64,000 nucleotides of DNA from a bacterium (GTDB lineage Bacteria; Planctomycetota; UBA1135; UBA2386): positions 38,207-102,206 of the forward strand of contig JANSXC010000002.1 of the NCBI GenBank assembly GCA_024743115.1, written 5' to 3'. Below are positions 38,490-50,508 of the stretch, in pieces; within the stretch, counting starts at the first letter, position 1, and every line of letters begins with the position of its first letter. The notes under the pieces are model-generated. The model had not been told where the DNA came from, made no database searches, and saw only the letters and a program-made list of their open reading frames with translations. The position numbers and the translations under genes are program-made.

Positions 38490-40511
38490 ATGCGATCGCG
38501 TCTTGGCATCCTGTTCCTCGGTCTCGCGGCAGCCCTGGCGCCTGCCCAGGCGTCGCCCGAATCGACCCGCGCGGCGATCGAGTTCCTGCGCCGGCACATG
38601 CCCGCCGGTGACGTCGGCGTCGTGACCCCCGAGTTCCTCGCCGCCGAAGTGCAGCTCGCACTGGCCGCGCGCGCGGCGACACCGTGGGGCGCGCAGCTCA
38701 CCGACGCGATGTTCCACAACTACGTCCTGCCCTATGCACAGGCGAACGAGACCCGCGAGAGCTGGCGTGCCGACTTCCAGCGCCGGTTCCTGCCGCGCGT
38801 TGCCGACTGCCAGACGCCGGGCGAGGCTGCGCTCGTCCTCAACCGAGTCGTGTTCGACGAGCTGAACGTGCACTACTCGACGAAGCGGCGGCGGGCCGAC
38901 CAGTCACCGAGCGAGTCGATCGCGCAGGGTATGGCAAGTTGCACGGGCCTCTCGATCGTGCTGGCCGATGCATGTCGGGCCTGTTGTGTGCCGGCGCGTC
39001 TCGTCTCGGTGGCCTGGCCACACAAGCGTGGCAACCACACGTGGGTCGAGGTCTGGGATGGCGAGCGCTGGCGCTTCTGCGGTGCGGACGAGCCGGACCC
39101 GAAGGGCCTCGATCGGGCGTGGTTCGTTGGTGACGCCAGCAAGTGCGCGGGTGCACAGCGCAAGAACCGTATCTGGGCCGTGTCCTTTGCGCGCACGGGA
39201 GAACGGTTCCGGGTCGGGTGGGGGCGTGACATCGAGTTGTGGGGCATCGATGTCACGGCGCGCTACACGAAGCAACCCCAGGGCGGCGGTGGCGGTGACG
39301 AGGCCCTCGCGGCGCAGCTCGACCGGTTCTACGCGGCGACGCCCGAAGCACGGGCGAAGTTCGCGTTCGATCGCAACCTCGACGCCGAACTCGCAACCAA
39401 AGCCGGGGACGCGCGGCTGCGGCGGTTGGTGTTCGAGGCCTGGCGCCGCAGCGAGCGGCCGAAGCTCGACACCGATCACGGCCAGCGTGTCGTGCACGCG
39501 GGCGGTAAGGAGAGTCCGTTCACGGTCAAACAGGTCGGGCAGCGACCCGCGACCGGTTGGCCGCTCGTGATCGCGATGCATGGTGGCGGCGGCGTGCCCA
39601 AGAAGTTCAACGACTCGCAGTGGCGCCACATGCAGATCTACTACCGCGATCAGCCGCAGGCGTCCGGCTACCTCTACTGCGCGCTGCGGGCGCCGACGGA
39701 CGAGTGGAACGGGTTCTACACCGACTACTTCTACCCGGTGCTGGAGAAGCTCATCCGGCAGTTCGTCGTGTGCGACGGCGTCGATCCGGACCGCGTCATC
39801 GCGATCGGCTACAGCCACGGTGGCTACGGTGCGTTCGCGCTGGGCCCGAAGCTGCCGCATCGCTTCGCGGCGGTGCACGCGAGCGCCGCCGCGCCGACCG
39901 ACGGCCAGAGCCTGCCTGACGGCCTGCATTCGCTGAGATTCTCGTTCATGGTCGGCGGCAAGGACACCGCCTACGGTCGCCGCTCACGTTGCGAGGCCTT
40001 CGCCAAGTCGCTGACGCGGATGCAACGTGCGCGGCCCGAGCTCTACCCGACCGAGTTCACGCTCGTCGAGGGCAACGGGCACACGGGGCTGCCGGACCGC
40101 GACCTGCTGCGGGAGCTCGTCCCACTGCGGCGGAACCCGATCCCTGCCACGCTCTATTGGCGGCCGACGGATGGAGTCGTGCGCGACCACTACTGGCTGC
40201 ACAACTCCGAGCCGCGACGGGATCAGCGACTGCATGCGGCGATCAACGGCCAGCGGGTCGACTATCACCTCGGGGGGGCGACCGCGGTCGAGGCGTGGCT
40301 CGATGCACGCCACGTCGATCTCACCGCGGCCGTGACGTTTCGCGACGTCGGGGAGGGCTGGCAGTTGAACGGTCTCGATCCGAAGCTCGAGGAGCAGCGT
40401 GAGCCGCCCTTCGAGGTCTCACCGAGTCCGAGCCTCCGGACGCTGGCCACCACGATGGCCGAGCGCGGTGATCCGCGTCTCGCGGCGAGCTGGATCGTCG
40501 GGCTGCGCTGA
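38490..40511 (+). CDS. Exported transglutaminase-like cysteine-protease-fold domain fused to an alpha/beta-hydrolase (esterase/peptidase) domain
   Basis: 673-aa ORF with signal peptide ...GLAAALAPAQ. Transglutaminase core Cys...His...Asp (MASCTGLSIVLADA...GNHTWVEVWDGERWRFCGADEP). C-terminal HGGGG, nucleophile elbow GYSHGG and GNGHTG. Confidence 0.8.
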   Translation: MRSRLGILFLGLAAALAPAQASPESTRAAIEFLRRHMPAGDVGVVTPEFLAAEVQLALAARAATPWGAQLTDAMFHNYVLPYAQANETRESWRADFQRRFLPRVADCQTPGEAALVLNRVVFDELNVHYSTKRRRADQSPSESIAQGMASCTGLSIVLADACRACCVPARLVSVAWPHKRGNHTWVEVWDGERWRFCGADEPDPKGLDRAWFVGDASKCAGAQRKNRIWAVSFARTGERFRVGWGRDIELWGIDVTARYTKQPQGGGGGDEALAAQLDRFYAATPEARAKFAFDRNLDAELATKAGDARLRRLVFEAWRRSERPKLDTDHGQRVVHAGGKESPFTVKQVGQRPATGWPLVIAMHGGGGVPKKFNDSQWRHMQIYYRDQPQASGYLYCALRAPTDEWNGFYTDYFYPVLEKLIRQFVVCDGVDPDRVIAIGYSHGGYGAFALGPKLPHRFAAVHASAAAPTDGQSLPDGLHSLRFSFMVGGKDTAYGRRSRCEAFAKSLTRMQRARPELYPTEFTLVEGNGHTGLPDRDLLRELVPLRRNPIPATLYWRPTDGVVRDHYWLHNSEPRRDQRLHAAINGQRVDYHLGGATAVEAWLDARHVDLTAAVTFRDVGEGWQLNGLDPKLEEQREPPFEVSPSPSLRTLATTMAERGDPRLAASWIVGLR

Positions 40512-40539: not shown

Positions 40540-42543
40540 TCAGGTGCTCAGCATGGCCAGGATCGCGTTTCCGAGTTCGCTCGGCAGCACGGGCTTGGCC
40601 AGGGTGCGATCGACGCCGACCTTGGTGGGGTCGTCGATTGCCGTGCCGGGCAGGAACCCCGAGCACAACAGGATCGGTAGCTCGGGGCGTGAGCGGCGGA
40701 CGGCGCCTGCGAGCTCCACGCCGGAGATCTCCGGCATGTCGTGATCGGTGACGAGGAGGTCGCAAGTGAGGCCGTCCTCCAACGCCGTGAGGGCCGCGAT
40801 GGGGCTCGTGTGGGCGGTGACCGTGAAGTCGCGGCGCTCGAGCCCGCGTCGCAGGGTATCGAGCAGGCTGGGTTCGTCGTCGACGAGCAAGACGTGTGGT
40901 GTCGCGCGTACCGTGGTGTCGGCGATGACCGGTGCGGGTTCGAGCGTGGCCCGCGGCAGACCGATGCGGAAAGTCGTGCCCTGACCTTCGTTGCTCTCCA
41001 CCTCGATGTGGCCCTCGTGACTCTCGATGATGCCGTGCACGACGGACAGGCCGAGGCCCGAGCCCTGGCCCTTCGGCTTGGTCGTGAAGAACGGTTCGAA
41101 GACTCGCTCTCGCGTCTGCTCCGATATCCCGCGGCCGTCGTCGGCGACAACGAGCTCGATCTCGTGCTCGTCTGCAGCTGCGGCCCGGATCGTGATCGTC
41201 CCGGGGCCTTCGCCGATCGCATGCCAGGCGTTCGTGCCGAGGTTGATGATGACCTGCACCAGCTGGTCTGAGTCGGCGCGCGCCGCGAGCTCCGTCGTTG
41301 GCGCGTCGAGCACCAGATCAATCGAACGCGGGATCGTGCCGCGCAGCAGGCGAACGGCTTCCTCGAGCAGGGGCCGCAGTTCTACCGTGGCCAGCTGTGG
41401 GGCCTCGTTGCGGCTGAAGGCGAGGACCTGACGCACGAGTGCTCGCGCGCGTTGGCCGGCCTGAGCGATCTCGTCGAGCGCAGATCTGGTCTCGGGCGGC
41501 GGTTGATCCAGCAGCGCGAGCTCGACGTTGCCCGAGATGATTGCGAGGATGTTGTTGAAGTCGTGCGCGATGCCGCCAGCGAGCGTGCCCATGGCCTCGA
41601 GTCTCTGCATGCGGCTCATGCGTTCCGATACCTCGGTGCGTTCTCGCTCAGCGAGTTTCTGCGCGGTGATGTCGATGTGACAGCCGACGAGCCCGGTCAT
41701 CCGGCCGCCGTCGGCGGTGACCATCTCGCCACGCGCGAGGATCCAGCGGTACTGGTCGTCCGCGAATCGGAGTCGGTACTCGGTGGAGTAGTCCGGGCTG
41801 TTGCCGTCCAGGTGGCGTCGAATGGCGGCCAGCGCGAGCGGTAGGTCGTCGGGATGGACGCGGTTGGCCCAGGCGTCGAACGTCTCGCCGGCCGGGCCGT
41901 CGCCGAAGCCGACCGTCTCCTGCCATTTGGGGTTGTAGGTGATCCGGCCGGAACCGAGCTCCCAGTTCCAGAAGCCGACCCTGCTGGCCTGTGCCGCGAG
42001 GGTCAGCTGGACCTCGGTGGCTCGCAACTGCGCGGCGACCCGGTTGCGTTCCGTGATATCGCGATTGAACGAGACGATGCACTTACGACCGCTGATGTTG
42101 GCGACGCGGGCGTGGACTTCGACTGGAAACACCGAACCGTCCCGCCGGCGATGGGTGACCTGGAAGCAGAGGTTGCCCCGCTGGCGGAGTGCGGCGATCC
42201 GTTCGCCGACGCGGATGGCATCTTCTCGGCTGTCGAGCAGGCCGATCGAGCGCCCGATCAGGTCTTCTCGCTCGTAGCCGTGGCTCGTCGCGGCCAGGGT
42301 GTTGGCGTCGAGAATGCGACCTTCTTCGTAGCCGTCGAACCCGATGAGCAAGACGGCGTCGGGCACGGCCTCGAGCAGTTCGCGGCGGATCCGGCGCTCC
42401 GCCAGCCATTGGCTGGTTGCTTCGGGCAGCGACTCGACAGCGGTCTCCGCTGCAACCACGGAGTCCCGGCCGTCGTCGCCCCTCTCTTCGCCTGGGCTCG
42501 AAGCGTTCATGGCACCGACTCCAACCGGCATCGGCCAGCCCAC
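40540..42543 (-). CDS. Hybrid sensor histidine kinase / response regulator with multiple PAS domains
   Basis: 667-aa ORF. PAS-like repeats, H-box GIAHDFNNILAIISG, ATPase boxes NLGTNAWHA / DDGRGI / GSGLGLS, and a C-terminal receiver (HVLLVDDEPSLL...LLVTDHDMPEISG). Confidence 0.92.
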   Translation of the reverse strand: MGWPMPVGVGAMNASSPGEERGDDGRDSVVAAETAVESLPEATSQWLAERRIRRELLEAVPDAVLLIGFDGYEEGRILDANTLAATSHGYEREDLIGRSIGLLDSREDAIRVGERIAALRQRGNLCFQVTHRRRDGSVFPVEVHARVANISGRKCIVSFNRDITERNRVAAQLRATEVQLTLAAQASRVGFWNWELGSGRITYNPKWQETVGFGDGPAGETFDAWANRVHPDDLPLALAAIRRHLDGNSPDYSTEYRLRFADDQYRWILARGEMVTADGGRMTGLVGCHIDITAQKLAERERTEVSERMSRMQRLEAMGTLAGGIAHDFNNILAIISGNVELALLDQPPPETRSALDEIAQAGQRARALVRQVLAFSRNEAPQLATVELRPLLEEAVRLLRGTIPRSIDLVLDAPTTELAARADSDQLVQVIINLGTNAWHAIGEGPGTITIRAAAADEHEIELVVADDGRGISEQTRERVFEPFFTTKPKGQGSGLGLSVVHGIIESHEGHIEVESNEGQGTTFRIGLPRATLEPAPVIADTTVRATPHVLLVDDEPSLLDTLRRGLERRDFTVTAHTSPIAALTALEDGLTCDLLVTDHDMPEISGVELAGAVRRSRPELPILLCSGFLPGTAIDDPTKVGVDRTLAKPVLPSELGNAILAMLST

Positions 42544-42578
42544 CGGGCCGACTTGATCGGATCCTGCCGGCCGGTTCG

Positions 42579-43367
42579 TCAGGCGCGAACGAACTCGATG
42601 ACGCGATCGAACGCCGCTGCCGACTCGAGCAGCAGGCTATGTCCGGCGCTGGCGATGCACTCGAACTGCGCGTTCGAGATCAGCGTGGCGGTGGCCTCGA
42701 CCTCCGCGGGCAGCGTCAGATGGTCCTCGGCGCCCGCCAGGCACAGGGTCGGCCACTGCACCTGGTCCGCGAGTCCGGCGCCGTCGAAGGCCAGCAGCGC
42801 GCGTACCTGGGCACGCATGAACGCGCGCGATTCGGGGCTCGGTTTCGTGCTCCGGACGATGTTGTCGACGACGTCGGGCTTGTTGTTGAGGAACGTCTCG
42901 CCGAACAGAAACGGCGCCGTGAGGTCGCCGAGCAGGTCGCCGGGCACGTCCGTGCAGAGCCGTTCGAACCAGCGATAGATCCGCTGACTGCGCGGCGTCT
43001 GCGGCGCGGCGCTGCAGAGCATCACGAGGCGGCTGGCGTGTTCGGAGTGGGTCGCCGCGGCCTGGAGTGCGACTTTGCCGCCGAGCGAGGTGCCGACGAG
43101 CGTGACGGGTTGCGGCAGCTCGGCCGCGACCGCGAGGACGTCGAGCGCTGCCTGCTGGAAGTCGTAGATGCCGCCCGGCAACGGGCCCGACGGGTCGAGG
43201 CCGACGGGGTCGATGGCGCAGCACGTGAAGCCGGCACGGACGAACCGGCGCGGCAGCGTTCCGAACAGGCGGGCGCCGGACCCCAGGCCCGGCACGAGCA
43301 CGATGCCCGGGCCGTCACCGTCGCGGCTGTAGTGGATCGAGCGCGAAGCACGCGTGAGGTTCGGCAT
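42579..43367 (-). CDS. Alpha/beta-fold hydrolase
   Basis: The ORF is open to 43454, but that start overlaps the upstream gene, so ATG 43367 is preferred. Motifs VLVPGLGSG and nucleophile elbow GTSLGG. Confidence 0.8.
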   Translation of the reverse strand: MPNLTRASRSIHYSRDGDGPGIVLVPGLGSGARLFGTLPRRFVRAGFTCCAIDPVGLDPSGPLPGGIYDFQQAALDVLAVAAELPQPVTLVGTSLGGKVALQAAATHSEHASRLVMLCSAAPQTPRSQRIYRWFERLCTDVPGDLLGDLTAPFLFGETFLNNKPDVVDNIVRSTKPSPESRAFMRAQVRALLAFDGAGLADQVQWPTLCLAGAEDHLTLPAEVEATATLISNAQFECIASAGHSLLLESAAAFDRVIEFVRA

Positions 43368-43398
43368 GGTCGAGCCAGTCGGGTGGCAGTCCGTGGTT

Positions 43399-44487
43399 TC
43401 AGCGCTCGAGGATGTAGGCTTTCTCGACCTCCGGCAGCATCGTGAGCACGACATCCGCCGTGATCTCGAAGCTCCTGGGGTCGAGGTTCTCGAGCGTGTC
43501 GGCGGGGGTGTGCCAGGTCACATTGCCGTTGAGGTCAATGAGGTCGACCGCCGGGATGCCCACCTCCATGAACGGCACGTGGTCATCGGCGGCACCCTCC
43601 GCCCGCTGGAAGAAGTGCTTGTCGTGGCCGCTGGCGACCGCGGCGCTCCAGAGGATCTGACGCAGGCGGGTCGTGGAGTAGAGCTCGTCCTGAATGTGCA
43701 GATTCTTGCCGCCGACCATGTCGAGCAGGATCAGCGCCGAGATGCGACCTTCTTCGCCGAGGACCTGGGCTTCGCGGTGGCGTTTGACGTAGCGCTTGCT
43801 GCCGAACAGCGCGCGCGCGGCTTCGTTCCAGTTCCAGTCGAGGCTCTCTTCGCCGTCGAAGAACACGAGCTCGATCGTGGCCTCGCGCTTCGTTGCGAGC
43901 AACGTCGGCACGAGCTCGAGCAGCAGCGCGACCGCGCTCGCACCGTCGTTGGCGCCGACGAAGTCGAAGTTGTGTCGTTGGTCCGGATGCTCGATCGTGC
44001 ACTTGGTGTCGTGATGGCACGCGAGCAGGATGCGGTCGTCACGTTTGCCGGGGATCGTCGCGCGCAGGTTCGTGAACGTGATCAGCTCCTTGCGATCCGT
44101 CCACGTGTCGCGGATGACCTTCAGCCCCGCGGCCTGCAGCTCGGTCTCGATGTAGCGCAGCTGCTGCGTCCACCCGGGCATACCCGCGGGCTTGGCGGAG
44201 TAGCGCGGGCCGAATCCCACGATCTTCTCGGCGCGCGCGAACGCGCGTTCGCCAAACCCTTTCGGCGCGCGGATCGCGGTCATCGGCAGTTTGACCCGGC
44301 GGTCGATCGCGGGGTGGCTGCGAAGCTGACCGGGCGACTGGCCGGATTCCTGGGTGCCGTTCTGTGGCGTGCCGGCGGTGCCCGTGCCGTCCTGGGGCGT
44401 GCCCCATGAGTTCTGCGAGGCTGCGGCCCCGAAGCAGGCCGCGAGCACGGCCGCGATCGCGATTCCGACGACGACACTCGTGCGCAT
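43399..44487 (-). CDS. M28-fold glutaminyl-peptide cyclotransferase-like lipoprotein (paralog 1)
   Basis: 362-aa ORF with a lipobox (AAVLAAC). Motifs LLACHHDTK, FVGANDGASAVALLLEL, VFFDGEES, LFGSKRY, LILLDMVGG, DDHVPFMEVGIPAVDLID and WHTPADTLENLD are collinear with mammalian-type QC. Confidence 0.8.
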   Translation of the reverse strand: MRTSVVVGIAIAAVLAACFGAAASQNSWGTPQDGTGTAGTPQNGTQESGQSPGQLRSHPAIDRRVKLPMTAIRAPKGFGERAFARAEKIVGFGPRYSAKPAGMPGWTQQLRYIETELQAAGLKVIRDTWTDRKELITFTNLRATIPGKRDDRILLACHHDTKCTIEHPDQRHNFDFVGANDGASAVALLLELVPTLLATKREATIELVFFDGEESLDWNWNEAARALFGSKRYVKRHREAQVLGEEGRISALILLDMVGGKNLHIQDELYSTTRLRQILWSAAVASGHDKHFFQRAEGAADDHVPFMEVGIPAVDLIDLNGNVTWHTPADTLENLDPRSFEITADVVLTMLPEVEKAYILER

Positions 44488-44517
44488 GATGAGCTCCAGC
44501 GTTGGGTGATGCGGCGG

Positions 44518-45645
44518 CTACTTGCCGCGCTTCTTGCGCTTGCCCTGACAGAACTCCGCGAGCGCCGGGAGCGCGGCGACGACGAGGTTCCCCGCGGTCG
44601 CGAGCGCTTCGGGGTCGACCGCGTCGAGGTTGTCGTCGGGCGTGTGCCACCAGCGTTCGTAGCGATCGTCCTGGGGTTGGCCGTCCTGTGGGATGCGGCG
44701 CGCGAAGTCGATCAGCAGCACGGAAGGAATGCCGTAGTTCTGGAAGATCTCGTGGTCGTCCTTGGTGCCCCACTTGAGCCCGCGGCGGGCGAACTCGGCG
44801 ACCTCCTCCTTCTTCGGAAACTCGTAGAGCAGCTGTCCGGGCCCGACGCCGTAGCCGATCGCCTTTGCGGCGTCGGCGAAGATGTCCTGCAGCGCAGGCA
44901 CGGAGTTACCGTCCTTGTCGATCTTGAAGTTCTTGCTGCCGATCAGATCGAGCAGCACGAACGCCTTGACGCGCGGCTTGATCTTCTTCTCGTGAAGCAT
45001 CTGGCAGAACGCCTTGCTGCCGAGCAGCGCCCGCTCGTCGTTCCACGTCCAGTCGATCGATTCCTCGGCGTCGATCCAGTAGAGCCAGACGTTGACGTCG
45101 GGGCGGTTCTTCGGGTCCGAGAGATGGCGCGCGAGCTCGATCAGCACGGCCGGTCCGCCGCCGCCGTCGATGGCGCCGACGAACGGGAAGTTGTGCGCTT
45201 CGTCGCTGTGGCCTATGGCGACCTTGGTGTCATAGTGAGCGCCGATCATCAAGATGGGGCCCTTGACGGGATCCGGCCCGTCGATCGCGACGTAGAGGTT
45301 GCGGATGAGCTTCTTCTCCTTGTCGTGCATGAGCTCGTGCCGCTGCGGCTTCAGGCCCATGGCGGAGAGTTGGCCGGTGATGTAGTCGGCGGTCTTGCCG
45401 AGCGCATCCGATCCGAACGGACGCGGTCCGATCTCGACGAACTTCTGCACGTGGACGTATGCCTCGCTGCCGGAGATCGGGCCCGACGGGCCGCTGCAGC
45501 ACGGCATGAGTGCCAGGCTGCCGAGCGCGAGCGTGGAGAGCAGGGCCGGCAGGACATGCCGCCGGCGCTGGGTTGGCGAAGAGGAACGATTCGCTGCATC
45601 ACGACCGGACATGCTCGCACCGTAACCCAGCACGCGGTTCGCCAC
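44518..45645 (-). CDS. M28-fold glutaminyl-peptide cyclotransferase-like lipoprotein (paralog 2)
   Basis: 375-aa ORF with a lipobox-like LALMPCC. Motifs IGAHYDTK, FVGAIDGGGGPAVLIELA, WIDAEES, LLGSKAF, VLLDLIGS, DDHEIFQNYGIPSVLLID, WHTPDDNLDAVD. Confidence 0.78.
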   Translation of the reverse strand: MANRVLGYGASMSGRDAANRSSSPTQRRRHVLPALLSTLALGSLALMPCCSGPSGPISGSEAYVHVQKFVEIGPRPFGSDALGKTADYITGQLSAMGLKPQRHELMHDKEKKLIRNLYVAIDGPDPVKGPILMIGAHYDTKVAIGHSDEAHNFPFVGAIDGGGGPAVLIELARHLSDPKNRPDVNVWLYWIDAEESIDWTWNDERALLGSKAFCQMLHEKKIKPRVKAFVLLDLIGSKNFKIDKDGNSVPALQDIFADAAKAIGYGVGPGQLLYEFPKKEEVAEFARRGLKWGTKDDHEIFQNYGIPSVLLIDFARRIPQDGQPQDDRYERWWHTPDDNLDAVDPEALATAGNLVVAALPALAEFCQGKRKKRGK

Positions 45646-45797
45646 AGGCGCTTTTCGCCCGGTGGCCCGCGCCGATTGGCTCGGAGATCGGGGCCGGACT
45701 TTGACTCATGCCAGCCCTTCGGAGCTCCGATACCATGGGCTGATACGGTAACGGCGCCCAAGTTCGCAACTAGCCGTAGATACAGGCAATCGAAGTC

Positions 45798-47828
<2,031 letters not shown>

Positions 47829-47840
47829 GAGAACCGAACC

Positions 47841-48944
47841 TTGTCCGTTCGCAGGATCGACCAGGACCACACGCGGTTCCGCAACATCGTCCGCGGCAAG
47901 ATCAAGCACGACCTCAAACGGTTCGTGAGCTCGGGCGAGTTGATCGGCAAGCAGGGCCAGCGCTACGTCAAGATCCCGCTCCCGCAGATCCAGCTGCCGC
48001 GGTTCCGCCACGGCCAGAACGAGGGCGGCGTCGGGCAGGGCGAGGGCGAGGACGGTCAGGGCGTGCCCGGTCAGGACGGCGAGGGCGCTGGCGAAGCTGG
48101 CGAGGATCCCGGGCAGCACATGCTCGAGGTCGAGGTTTCGCTCGAGGACCTCGCGAAGATTCTCGGCGAGGAACTCGAGCTGCCGAACATCGAGCCGCGT
48201 GGGCGCAAGAACGTGCGGACCTACGCGGGGCGCTACACCGGCATCTCGCGCACGGGGCCGAACTCACTACGGCACTTCAAGCGCACGTTCCGCGAGGCGC
48301 TCAAGCGCCAGATCGCGTCGGGCACCTACGATCCCGAGCACCCCGTCGTCGTGCCGATTCGCGAGGACATGCGTTTCCGTTCGATGGAGACCCGCGAGAT
48401 CCCGCAGGCGAGCGCGGCGATCATCTACATGATGGATGTCTCGGGCTCGATGGGGCGCGAACAGAAGGAGATCGTGCGCATCGAGGCGTTCTGGATCGAT
48501 ACCTGGCTGCGGCATCAATACAAGAATCTCGAGGTGCACTACATCGTGCACGACGCGGTGGCGCACGAGGTCGACCAGCACACGTTCTTCCATCTGCGCG
48601 AAAGTGGCGGCACCAAGATCAGTTCGGCCTACGAGCTCTGCACGCAGCTCATCCGCGACAAGTATCCCGCGCAGGAGTGGAACATCTATCCGTTCCACTT
48701 CAGCGACGGCGACAACTGGAGCGCGCGCGACACCGAGCACTGTGTATCGCTGCTCAAGGACAGCATCCTGCCGGTCTGCAACCAGTTCTCGTACGGGCAG
48801 GTCAAGAGCGCCTACGGCAGCGGGCAGTTCAAGAAGGACCTCGACGGCGCGTTTCGCGGCACCGAGAGAGTGGTGACGACCGACATCATGGATCGCGAAG
48901 GCATCCTGCCGAGCATCAAGACGTTCTTGAGCAAGGGGCGCTGA
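47841..48944 (+). CDS. YeaH/YhbH (DUF444) family protein with VWA-like MIDAS motif
   Basis: 367-aa ORF from TTG 47841, preceded by AGGAG (47827-47831). Motif [12 protein letters not shown]. Conserved position after prkA. Confidence 0.88.
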
Positions 48945-48948
48945 CAGC

Positions 48949-50508
48949 ATGGGCAACCTCACCCCGGAACTCGCGGCGCTCCGCGACGAGACCCGTGACC
49001 TAGCGAAGAGCTACGGACTCGACTTCTACGAAGTGATCTTCGAACTCGTTGACTACGACGAGCTCAACATGATCGCGAGCTACGGCGGCTTCCCGACCCG
49101 GTATCCGCATTGGCGCTTCGGGATGGAGTACGAGCAGCTCAGCAAGAGCTACGCCTACGGGCTGTCGAAGATCTACGAGCTCGTGATCAACAACGATCCG
49201 TGCTATGCGTACTTGATGCGTAGCAACGCGATCACGGAGCAGAAGCTCGTGATGGCGCACGTCTACGGCCACTGCGACTTCTTCAAGAACAACGCGTGGT
49301 TCTCGCACACGTCGCGCAAGATGATGGACGTGATGGCGAATCATGGCTCGCGCATTCGGCGCTACATGGATCGCTACGGGCAAGAGCGGGTCGAGAACTT
49401 CATCGACCTCGTGCAGTCGCTCGAGAACCTGATCGATCCATACTCGCCGTACATCGATCGCGGCACGGACCGCCGCAGGGCGCCGCCGAGGAAGGACGAC
49501 CAGGATTCGCGTGAAGTGCAGAAGATCGCGGCCAAGGACTACATGGACCGCTACATCAACCCGCCCGAGTTCCTCGAGCGGGAGCGGGAGCGTCTGGATC
49601 AGGAGGATCAGCAGGCGCGGCAGTTCCCGGCGCGGCCCGAGCGCGACGTGCTCAAGTTCCTGCTCGACTACGCGCCGCTCGAGACTTGGGAGCAGGACGT
49701 GCTCGCGATGTTGCGCGAGGAGGCCTACTACTTCGCCCCCCAGGGCATGACGAAGATCATGAACGAGGGCTGGGCCGTGTTCTGGCACAGCCACATGATG
49801 ACGCGGCATCTATGTGACGCGTCCGAGATCGTCAACTACTGCGACACGCATAGCGGCACGCTCGGCACGAGTCCGGGCCAGCTCAATCCCTACAAGCTCG
49901 GCGTCGAGCTCTTCCGCGACATCGAGGAACGCTGGAACACCGGCAAGTTCGGCGTCGAGTACCAGTCGTGCGACGACCCGGAGGTGCGCAAGAACTGGCA
50001 TCGACCGACCAACGAGGGGCGGGCGAAGGTGTTCGAGGTGCGGCGGATCTACAACGACATCACGTTCGTCGATGAGTTCATCACGCCGGAGTTCGCGGAG
50101 GCGCAGAAGATGTTCGTCTACGGTCAGGATCCGCAGACGGGCGAGATCGTGATCCTCGACCGCGACTACACCAAGGTGAAGACGCAGCTGCTCGAGGCGC
50201 TGACGAACCACGGCAACCCGATCATCAAAGTGGTCGATGCGAACCACAAGAATCGCGGCGAGCTCTACCTCGTGCATCAGTGGGTCAAGGGTGACCTGCA
50301 GCTCGATGAGGCGATGCTGACACTGCAGGGGCTGTTCCAGCTCTGGAAGCGACCGGTGCACATCGAGACCGTCCAGGACGGCAAGGGGCGGCTGCTGAGT
50401 TTCGACGGCGAAGAGGCGTCGACCCAGGAGGTTACGAGTTCCCATCCGGTGACCGGCAGGGTCGGTGTCGGCTCCGAGAAGCAGTCCGAGGCCGAAGCCG
50501 AGAACTGA
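48949..50508 (+). CDS. spoVR: SpoVR/YcgB family protein
   Basis: 519-aa ORF. Motifs [15 protein letters not shown] and [18 protein letters not shown]. It starts 4 nt after the DUF444 stop. Confidence 0.9.

Follow-up and report, generated by a model that had tools for sequence, protein, structure and literature searches.

A diverged tandem pair of predicted type II glutaminyl cyclases in a Planctomycetota family with predicted glutamine-first exported proteins

Two adjacent genes were analysed in a 64,000-nucleotide stretch of a planctomycete genome (GenBank assembly GCA_024743115.1, contig JANSXC010000002.1; hereafter the window), which corresponds to C1:38207-102206 of a 6.95-Mb, 53-contig genome whose relatives are uncultured Planctomycetota metagenome-assembled genomes (MAGs). 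The two genes, here called up-QC and dn-QC, probably represent a tandem duplication, restricted to one family, of a type II, M28-fold, zinc-dependent glutaminyl cyclase (QC), with both copies capping Gln at position +1 of exported proteins at the membrane and up-QC having diverged. A first reading, made from the letters of the window without database searches (the sequence-only reading), had proposed a tandem pair of M28-fold QC-like genes at 43399-45645. We confirmed both open reading frames there, on the minus strand (Table 1), with matches to the M28 family and with QCs as the best matches, and all of the QC motif blocks that it had quoted are present in the translations.

Fold, signature residues and phylogeny

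Pfam PF04389 (Peptidase_M28) matches both proteins (dn-QC, E 1.9e-33; up-QC, E 9.8e-30), and none of the NCBIfam models fits either of them. Among proteins of solved structure the best sequence matches are QCs, namely 7d18 (E 4e-30 and 3e-20 for the two), then 7d1b, human QC/isoQC, the Drosophila QCs, PgQC and TfQC, with di-zinc aminopeptidases giving weaker matches (E 1e-9 to 1e-6). AlphaFold2 models, which the sequence-only reading had suggested making, are confident for both up-QC (predicted local distance difference test (pLDDT) 84.8, predicted template modelling score (pTM) 0.84) and dn-QC (pLDDT 86.8, pTM 0.83), with the M28/QC domain starting at about residue 48 of up-QC and spanning residues 78-360 of dn-QC. 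Using Foldseek, both models were found to be closest to crystallised QCs (7d18 from Acidobacteriales, 7d1b from Fimbriiglobus ruber, PgQC, BtQC and TfQC) at template modelling (TM) scores of 0.80-0.86 on the target, and the best matches of dn-QC are 7d18 and 7d1b.

To compare signature residues, we aligned the 19 orthologs of up-QC and dn-QC with 20 homologs that occur as single copies in Planctomycetota and in other phyla of the Planctomycetes-Verrucomicrobia-Chlamydiae group, three QC sequences taken from PDB alignments, and the genome's nine other M28 proteins, which were found by Pfam search; the alignment ranges of 2afm served to verify the human numbering. These nine are of the aminopeptidase type and lie in open frames of 486-1262 aa (contigs C19, C5, C26, C42, C23, C4, C27, C21, C25). 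The residues predicted to bind zinc (D159, E202 and H330 in the human enzyme) are D181, E214 and H326 in dn-QC and D149, E184 and H323 in up-QC, and are invariant in 19/19 orthologs, all of which also keep the equivalents of human E201 and D248 (the catalytic acid/base), D305 (of the carboxylate hydrogen-bond network) and W329. More broadly, every QC-like sequence in the alignment carries His, Asp, Lys/Arg, Asp-[Gly/Ser/Ala], Glu-Glu, Asp, Asp (305) and Trp-His.

Two positions have been described as discriminating between the enzyme classes (PMC7948796). First, the bridging Asp is followed by Asn/Asp in aminopeptidases, by Ser in animal QCs and by Gly in bacteroidal QCs; all 19 orthologs have Gly or Ser here, and both window paralogs have Gly. 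Second, the His ligand is preceded by Trp in QCs and by Tyr in aminopeptidases; every up-QC and dn-QC ortholog has Trp. In the genome's aminopeptidase-type proteins Asn/Asp follows the bridging Asp, position 305 is Ser/Ala/Gly, the Lys144 position is mostly hydrophobic and, in six of the nine, Tyr precedes the His ligand. A three-position signature (the residue that follows the bridging Asp, together with Asp305 and Trp329) cleanly separates the predicted cyclases from the predicted aminopeptidases among these proteins. The Asp that replaces Glu202 as a zinc ligand in bacteroidal QCs is absent, as both paralogs have Glu-Glu where TfQC has Glu-Asp, which places them outside the bacteroidal subfamily.

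The sequence-only reading had expected the choice between cyclase and aminopeptidase to come from scoring mono-zinc versus di-zinc ligands. This criterion was set aside, since the five aminopeptidase ligand positions are conserved alike in genuine QCs, in both paralogs and in the aminopeptidase-type M28 proteins, so that counting them cannot tell a mono-zinc from a di-zinc enzyme. A second zinc can in any case bind human Golgi QC (PMC13424184, citing Huang et al. 2021). The same reading had named intact ligands together with placement among di-zinc aminopeptidases as part of the outcome that would count against it: all five ligands are indeed intact, yet in a maximum-likelihood tree rooted on aminopeptidases the QC-like sequences (including 7d18, 7d1b and 6qro) split from the genome's aminopeptidase-type M28 proteins at 97/93, and both paralogs fall in the clade with four crystallised QCs.

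It is accordingly very improbable that both proteins are ordinary di-zinc M28 aminopeptidases, with the Gln bias described below unrelated to them. The three aminopeptidase-specific positions all fail in both paralogs (Gly after the bridging Asp, Asp at 305, Trp at 329), and this, together with the position in the tree, outweighs what can be said for such a function, which is that most database names for these genes read 'M28 family peptidase' or 'Zn-dependent exopeptidase', that the five metal-ligand positions are present, that the Streptomyces griseus aminopeptidase is among the fold matches (rank 9 for up-QC, rank 44 for dn-QC), and that a Gln bias is also seen in two genomes without a QC. 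The Bacteroides 'leucine aminopeptidase' structures 3tc8 and 4fuu, which have the same signature, were re-annotated as QCs (PMC7948796), and recombinant PgQC was without aminopeptidase activity (PMC5837995). By every sequence criterion applied, excepting the residue of up-QC at the human His319 position (see below), both genes are predicted to encode type II (mammalian-type) QC-like rather than aminopeptidase-like proteins.

Two further suggestions of the sequence-only reading were that one copy might have become an aminopeptidase or lost catalysis, the latter hinted at by DAEES in place of the DGEE of QCs. The first does not agree with the QC residues that both copies carry at the discriminating positions. 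A non-catalytic pseudoenzyme was rejected because the catalytic residues are invariant in 9/9 up-QC and 10/10 dn-QC orthologs. DAEES was likewise discarded as a defect, as crystallised TfQC (6qro) reads FFDAED and Ala occupies that position in 2/23 other QCs.

Duplication and divergence of the two copies

In a homolog search of 301 Planctomycetota genomes, 50 were found to have a homolog, with a patchy distribution outside the window's order. At least two copies are present in 5/5 genomes of the window's family, and a single copy in 11/11 genomes of the same order. In the maximum-likelihood tree the up-QC clade (100/100) is sister to the dn-QC clade (100/99), and the joint clade (95/91) contains members of one family only; furthermore, the order up-QC, dn-QC, alpha/beta hydrolase is kept at 8/8 loci from related MAGs and in four genomes of the family. 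The family-restricted sister clades, the copy counts and the conserved tandem order place one duplication event at the root of a single uncultured Planctomycetota family, and the copies have since been retained under similar constraint. Within most of the family the orthologs of either copy share 57-64% identity (42-49% for G119, the basal member), and the path lengths within the two clades are similar. The stem branches are longer for the up-QC clade (0.63+0.60) than for the dn-QC clade (0.38+0.34), which fits a burst of change in up-QC after duplication. The window's genome has no further close copies of the pair. A third, dn-like copy occurs in G157, one of the family genomes, at another site on the chromosome (C1:2691826-2692785), with a hydrophobic anchor (GLALVLQQLRQ) and no lipobox Cys.

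The two copies, which are 31% identical to each other (E 4e-46), differ around the active site. Five sites that are conserved in dn-QC and in at least 75% of other QCs are changed and fixed in up-QC (N180I, S184G, F209W, G212A and D315L, in dn-QC numbering), and all five adjoin metal ligands or sit in the second shell. In addition, up-QC has two insertions, an extra helix at 265-281 just before the Asp305 equivalent and a low-confidence loop at 304-320 just before Trp-His. In dn-QC a single, remote site deviates from the consensus of QCs. The human counterpart of dn-QC position 315 is His319, which takes part in the hydrogen-bond network formed by Ser160/Glu201/Asp248/Asp305/His319 in human QC (PMC10435661). 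Bacterial QCs have Asp/Asn at this position; it is Asp in 10/10 dn-QC orthologs, whereas up-QC has Leu in 8/9, with Asp only in the basal family member. On these grounds dn-QC is the conservative copy and up-QC the derived one, which probably differs in substrate range, in pH or kinetic behaviour, or in site of action. The split of roles at which the sequence-only reading had hinted is thus borne out as a suggestion by the tether (described below), the insertions and the second-shell changes.

The Leu of up-QC, at a position where all other QCs have Asp/Asn, counts against cyclase activity in both copies, as it could lower or change the activity. An alternative that takes this further holds dn-QC to be the only working cyclase and up-QC to be neofunctional with its metal site kept, serving another purpose at protein N-termini, for example in glutamyl cyclisation, on a narrow substrate class, as a weak peptidase or in binding. 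The longer stem, the five conserved departures near the metal ligands (with D315L falling in the hydrogen-bond network) and the two insertions, which flank the substrate pocket, all speak for it, as does the mostly hydrophobic residue (Phe) of aminopeptidase-type M28 proteins at the 315 position. Set against these, E201, D248, D305, W329 and the three zinc ligands are invariant in 9/9 up-QC orthologs, the residue after the bridging Asp is still Gly rather than Asn/Asp, the other four changed sites have not shifted towards aminopeptidase states, and the within-clade rates of the two copies are now similar. We therefore regard this alternative as unlikely, and prefer two predicted cyclases of which up-QC is the diverged one.

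The copies also differ in how they are attached. up-QC begins with a signal peptide with Cys38/Cys39 (45501-45496) in an atypical L-M-P-C-C context, followed by a nine-residue Gly/Ser/Pro tether. dn-QC has a signal peptide with the lipobox VLAA-C18 (Cys codon 44436-44434) and then a low-complexity tether of about 60 residues (19-77); its AlphaFold2 model shows a helix at 3-26 and predicted disorder from 27 to about 75. Of the lipobox signals reported in the sequence-only reading, that of dn-QC is therefore canonical (L-A-A-C), and that of the window's up-QC is atypical, though its orthologs have canonical ones (L-T-S-C, M-A-S-C, L-S-A-C and I-S-G-C). The dn-QC orthologs have L-G-A-C or L-A-A-C, and the lipobox Cys is conserved in both clades. 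Tethers measure 9-13 residues (Gly/Ser/Pro) in up-QC orthologs, 32-72 residues (variable, low-complexity) in dn-QC orthologs and 15-35 residues in single-copy relatives. Export of up-QC by the twin-arginine (Tat) route, considered for its RRR motif, was rejected as the orthologs have no twin-Arg motif.

Both paralogs hence look exported, membrane-tethered and periplasm-facing, with lipidation a possible means of attachment. Two features are at odds with lipidation. First, the lipobox of the window's up-QC is poor. Second, the hydrophobic stretch of the dn-QC orthologs runs 6-10 residues past the lipobox Cys and ends in ...[ST]↓Q, with the arrow marking the putative cleavage site (CFGAAAS↓QNS in the window, 44380-44436). 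For the latter reason, and because the third copy of G157 has no Cys, a signal peptidase I (SPase I) site or a signal anchor is an alternative for dn-QC, which may itself be a Gln-first SPase I substrate, or signal-anchored, instead of a lipoprotein.

Glutamine after signal peptides

The sequence-only reading had also pointed to Gln at +1 of exported proteins, a pattern that is real across the whole genome. Gene calling by a simple model of codon usage gave 4584 genes (88% coding), and signal-peptide-like N-termini were picked by a home-made heuristic (not SignalP or LipoP) that requires a hydrophobic stretch behind a charged n-region. In 390 of 776 such N-termini lacking a lipobox (50%), the first polar residue after the hydrophobic stretch is Gln; counted over the whole proteome, Gln makes up ~11% of the seven polar residues. 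Where the residues at -3 and -1 are small, Gln is next in 327/467 (70%). The site logo is that of classical SPase I cleavage, with Leu/Ala/Val at -3, Ala at -1 in 83% and Gln at +1 ([LAV]-x-A↓Q). Counting what follows [ALV]-x-A, a test that is independent of where the hydrophobic stretch ends, agrees with the site counts: Gln follows in 14.2% of cases in these N-termini versus 2.8% in protein interiors (5-fold), and is the sole enriched polar residue.

These counts are weakened by the home-made nature of the heuristic and by up to ~36% of the Gln calls having Ala/Gly/Ser at +2, so that they could belong to an A-Q-A↓ register, a pitfall shown by E. coli OmpA. As this register is ambiguous, we use a cautious range, in which Gln follows ~45-70% of predicted SPase I sites genome-wide. 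A negative control on 200 kb of E. coli yielded eight signal-peptide-like N-termini, too few for calibration. Gln-first examples in the window lie at 13315-61131. A 673-aa exported protein with a transglutaminase-like core and an alpha/beta-hydrolase domain (window 38490-40511, plus strand) has a signal peptide ending APAQA↓SPE, in the A-Q-A register and not Gln-first.

A comparable habit, the Q-rule, is known from Bacteroidetes, where Gln occupies +1 at ~71% of sites and mostly <20% in the comparison phyla tested, and it has been described as exclusive to Bacteroidetes (PMC5837995, PMC10653852). Planctomycetes are absent from the phyla compared in that published work, and our literature search found no paper linking Planctomycetes to pyroglutamate.

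We then applied the same heuristic to samples of 60-340 kb from 15 other Planctomycetota genomes, counting sites with small -3 and -1 residues; the samples are small and the genomes related. Gln follows in 26/37 (70%) for three other family genomes with the tandem pair, in 12/25 (48%; range 3/11 to 6/7) for five same-order genomes with a single QC, and in 12/43 (28%) for five more distant genomes with a clear QC. Two sets of genomes do not sit well with a link between enzyme and pattern. In three of the more distant genomes, each with one clear QC (G070, G118 and G190), the Gln bias is slight or absent, at 0/8, 1/7 and 4/18; the profile E-values are 1e-80 and 1e-104 for G070 and G190, and the QC of G118 reaches only E 9e-30 to dn-QC. 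Conversely, two genomes without a detectable type II or type I QC (G001 and G008) are still Gln-enriched, at 7/13 and 4/9; the best M28 matches in these have the aminopeptidase signature, and the QC profile returns background M28 levels (1e-19 to 1e-26, versus 1e-80 to 1e-104 for true QCs). A type I (beta-propeller) QC was rejected as an alternative enzyme, as PF05096 was not found in the window's genome or in G001, G008, G070 or G190.

The Gln bias is thus strong and uniform in the family that bears the pair, but across the phylum, where the samples are small and the result mixed, no clean correlation with QC presence was obtained. Having a QC does not imply the Q-rule, and in the QC-less, Gln-enriched genomes there is either an unrecognised cyclase or a +1 Gln that needs no cyclase. 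This mixed pattern limits the coherent N-terminal maturation system that the sequence-only reading had seen in the pair and the Gln bias together.

The phylum-wide counts also bear on whether the copies might be redundant isoenzymes, with the same activity and place, kept for dosage in view of a Gln-rich secretome. All first-shell catalytic residues are kept in both copies, the genes are probably co-transcribed, and the two-copy family has the most uniform Gln bias sampled (70% versus 48% in the same-order single-copy genomes). Nevertheless, the statistical support for that last difference is slight (Fisher p 0.04 and 0.11, from related genomes that are not independent), the copies share only 31% identity, and the two clades differ consistently in tether length, loop insertions and second-shell residues, with each clade keeping its own state across the family. 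Such fixed differences are not expected of dosage duplicates, and we give this explanation little credence, on a par with the aminopeptidase one.

A possible reason for capping comes from the organism's own exported peptidases. At least 4/9 of the aminopeptidase-type M28 proteins are exported, with signal peptides of their own ending in ...A↓Q. Capping by QC as a protection against exported aminopeptidases has been proposed for Bacteroidetes (PMC10653852), and the presence of exported aminopeptidases in this genome fits that rationale. In the sequence of events that we favour, SPase I cleavage would expose an N-terminal Gln on most Sec substrates, both tethered zinc cyclases would turn it into pyroglutamate in the periplasm, and the cap would probably shield exported proteins from the organism's own exported aminopeptidases. 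dn-QC, on its long flexible tether, would be the general enzyme, and up-QC, about ten residues from the membrane and with a remodelled active-site rim and second shell, would act in a different place, on a different substrate set or under a different condition.

A bolder extension, which we put forward tentatively and consider doubtful in its full form, is that this family evolved a Bacteroidetes-like Q-rule independently and serves it with two enzymes. Through its remodelled active-site shell (the change from Asp to Leu at the His319 position and the two pocket insertions), up-QC would then have a distinct job (another substrate class, Glu cyclisation, or action at signal-peptide cleavage), and the duplication would have let the rule become near-universal.

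Locus and comparison with known systems

The window is high in GC (~68%), and the two QC genes lie in tandem in it, with a 30-nt spacer, and are probably co-transcribed, judging from the layout in Table 1. Downstream, an alpha/beta-hydrolase gene that starts 31 nt after dn-QC is a conserved syntenic neighbour of the pair. The prkA-yeaH-spoVR triad lies upstream and is divergently oriented; compared with the flanking sequence, its block (window 46001-50000) has a lower G+C (0.62-0.63 versus ~0.68) and a positive AT skew. A scan of the minus strand at 42300-46000 found no promoter-like or terminator-like site and was uninformative.

Table 1 Features of the QC locus (window positions; signature residues, in each protein's own numbering, are predicted from the alignment).
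Feature	Position	Strand	Details
up-QC (derived paralog)	44518..45645	-	375 aa from GTG 45645; likelier ATG start 45612, giving 364 aa; H126, D128, K130, D149-G150, E183, E184, D222, D285, W322, H323
Spacer up-QC/dn-QC	44488..44517	-	30 nt; GGAG 6 nt 5' of the dn-QC ATG
dn-QC (conservative paralog)	43399..44487	-	362 aa; H158, D160, K162, D181-G182, E213, E214, D256, D301, D315, W325, H326
alpha/beta-hydrolase gene	42579..43367	-	262 aa, no signal peptide; PF00561 E 8.8e-20, PF12146 E 8.4e-19

Type II QCs are already known in Planctomycetes and other non-Bacteroidetes bacteria. What is new here is the fixed, diverged tandem pair across a family, the second-shell and loop changes of up-QC, and the co-occurrence of the pair with a Gln rule of Bacteroidetes strength in another phylum. 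The QC of Bacteroidetes is essential and a drug target. A second, unrelated phylum with a Gln-first habit would show the trait to be convergent, and would give a comparative system for asking why Gln capping evolves, aminopeptidase protection being the current idea. The diverged pair also offers a natural experiment on how second-shell residues and loops set QC specificity, one that parallels the split between animal QC and isoQC. Finally, most of these QC genes are named 'M28 family peptidase' in databases, and the three-position signature sorts them from aminopeptidases.

The closest solved structures by both sequence and fold are 7D1B (the Fimbriiglobus ruber QC) and 7D18 (the Acidobacteriales QC), both from Huang et al. 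2021 (J Mol Biol 433:166960). 7D1B differs in belonging to another QC sub-clade (with TfQC) and in sharing at most 25% identity in the fold alignments. As far as is known both are single genes, and searchable papers report no link from either to a Gln-first secretome.

Di-zinc M28 aminopeptidases, such as SGAP of Streptomyces griseus, AAP of Vibrio proteolyticus and YwaD of Bacillus subtilis, share the fold and the five metal-ligand positions with the pair; unlike them, both paralogs lack the aminopeptidase-specific residues (Asn/Asp, Ser 305, Tyr 329), which the other nine M28 proteins of the genome do carry.

Another close parallel is the Bacteroidetes Q-rule with its lipoprotein type II QCs (PgQC, PG2157 of Porphyromonas gingivalis; TfQC; PiQC; PMC5837995, PMC7948796, PMC10653852), which share with the present system the M28 fold and the single-copy-type QC signature; an N-terminal lipobox, a periplasm-facing orientation and Gln after most SPase I sites are predicted for the present system as well. 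The differences are that the host belongs to Planctomycetota, that the third zinc ligand is predicted to be Glu, as in animals, versus the bacteroidal Asp, and that two diverged tandem paralogs, known from their sequence, stand in place of one gene. Human QPCT/QPCTL (and Drosophila QC/isoQC) are likewise a duplicated type II pair whose members carry out the same reaction, with one member secreted and the other N-terminally anchored (PMC10435661), to which the tether difference described here is analogous. That eukaryotic duplication was independent, however, and the human copies are >45% identical with His319 kept, whereas the planctomycete copies are 31% identical and one of them has lost the equivalent residue.

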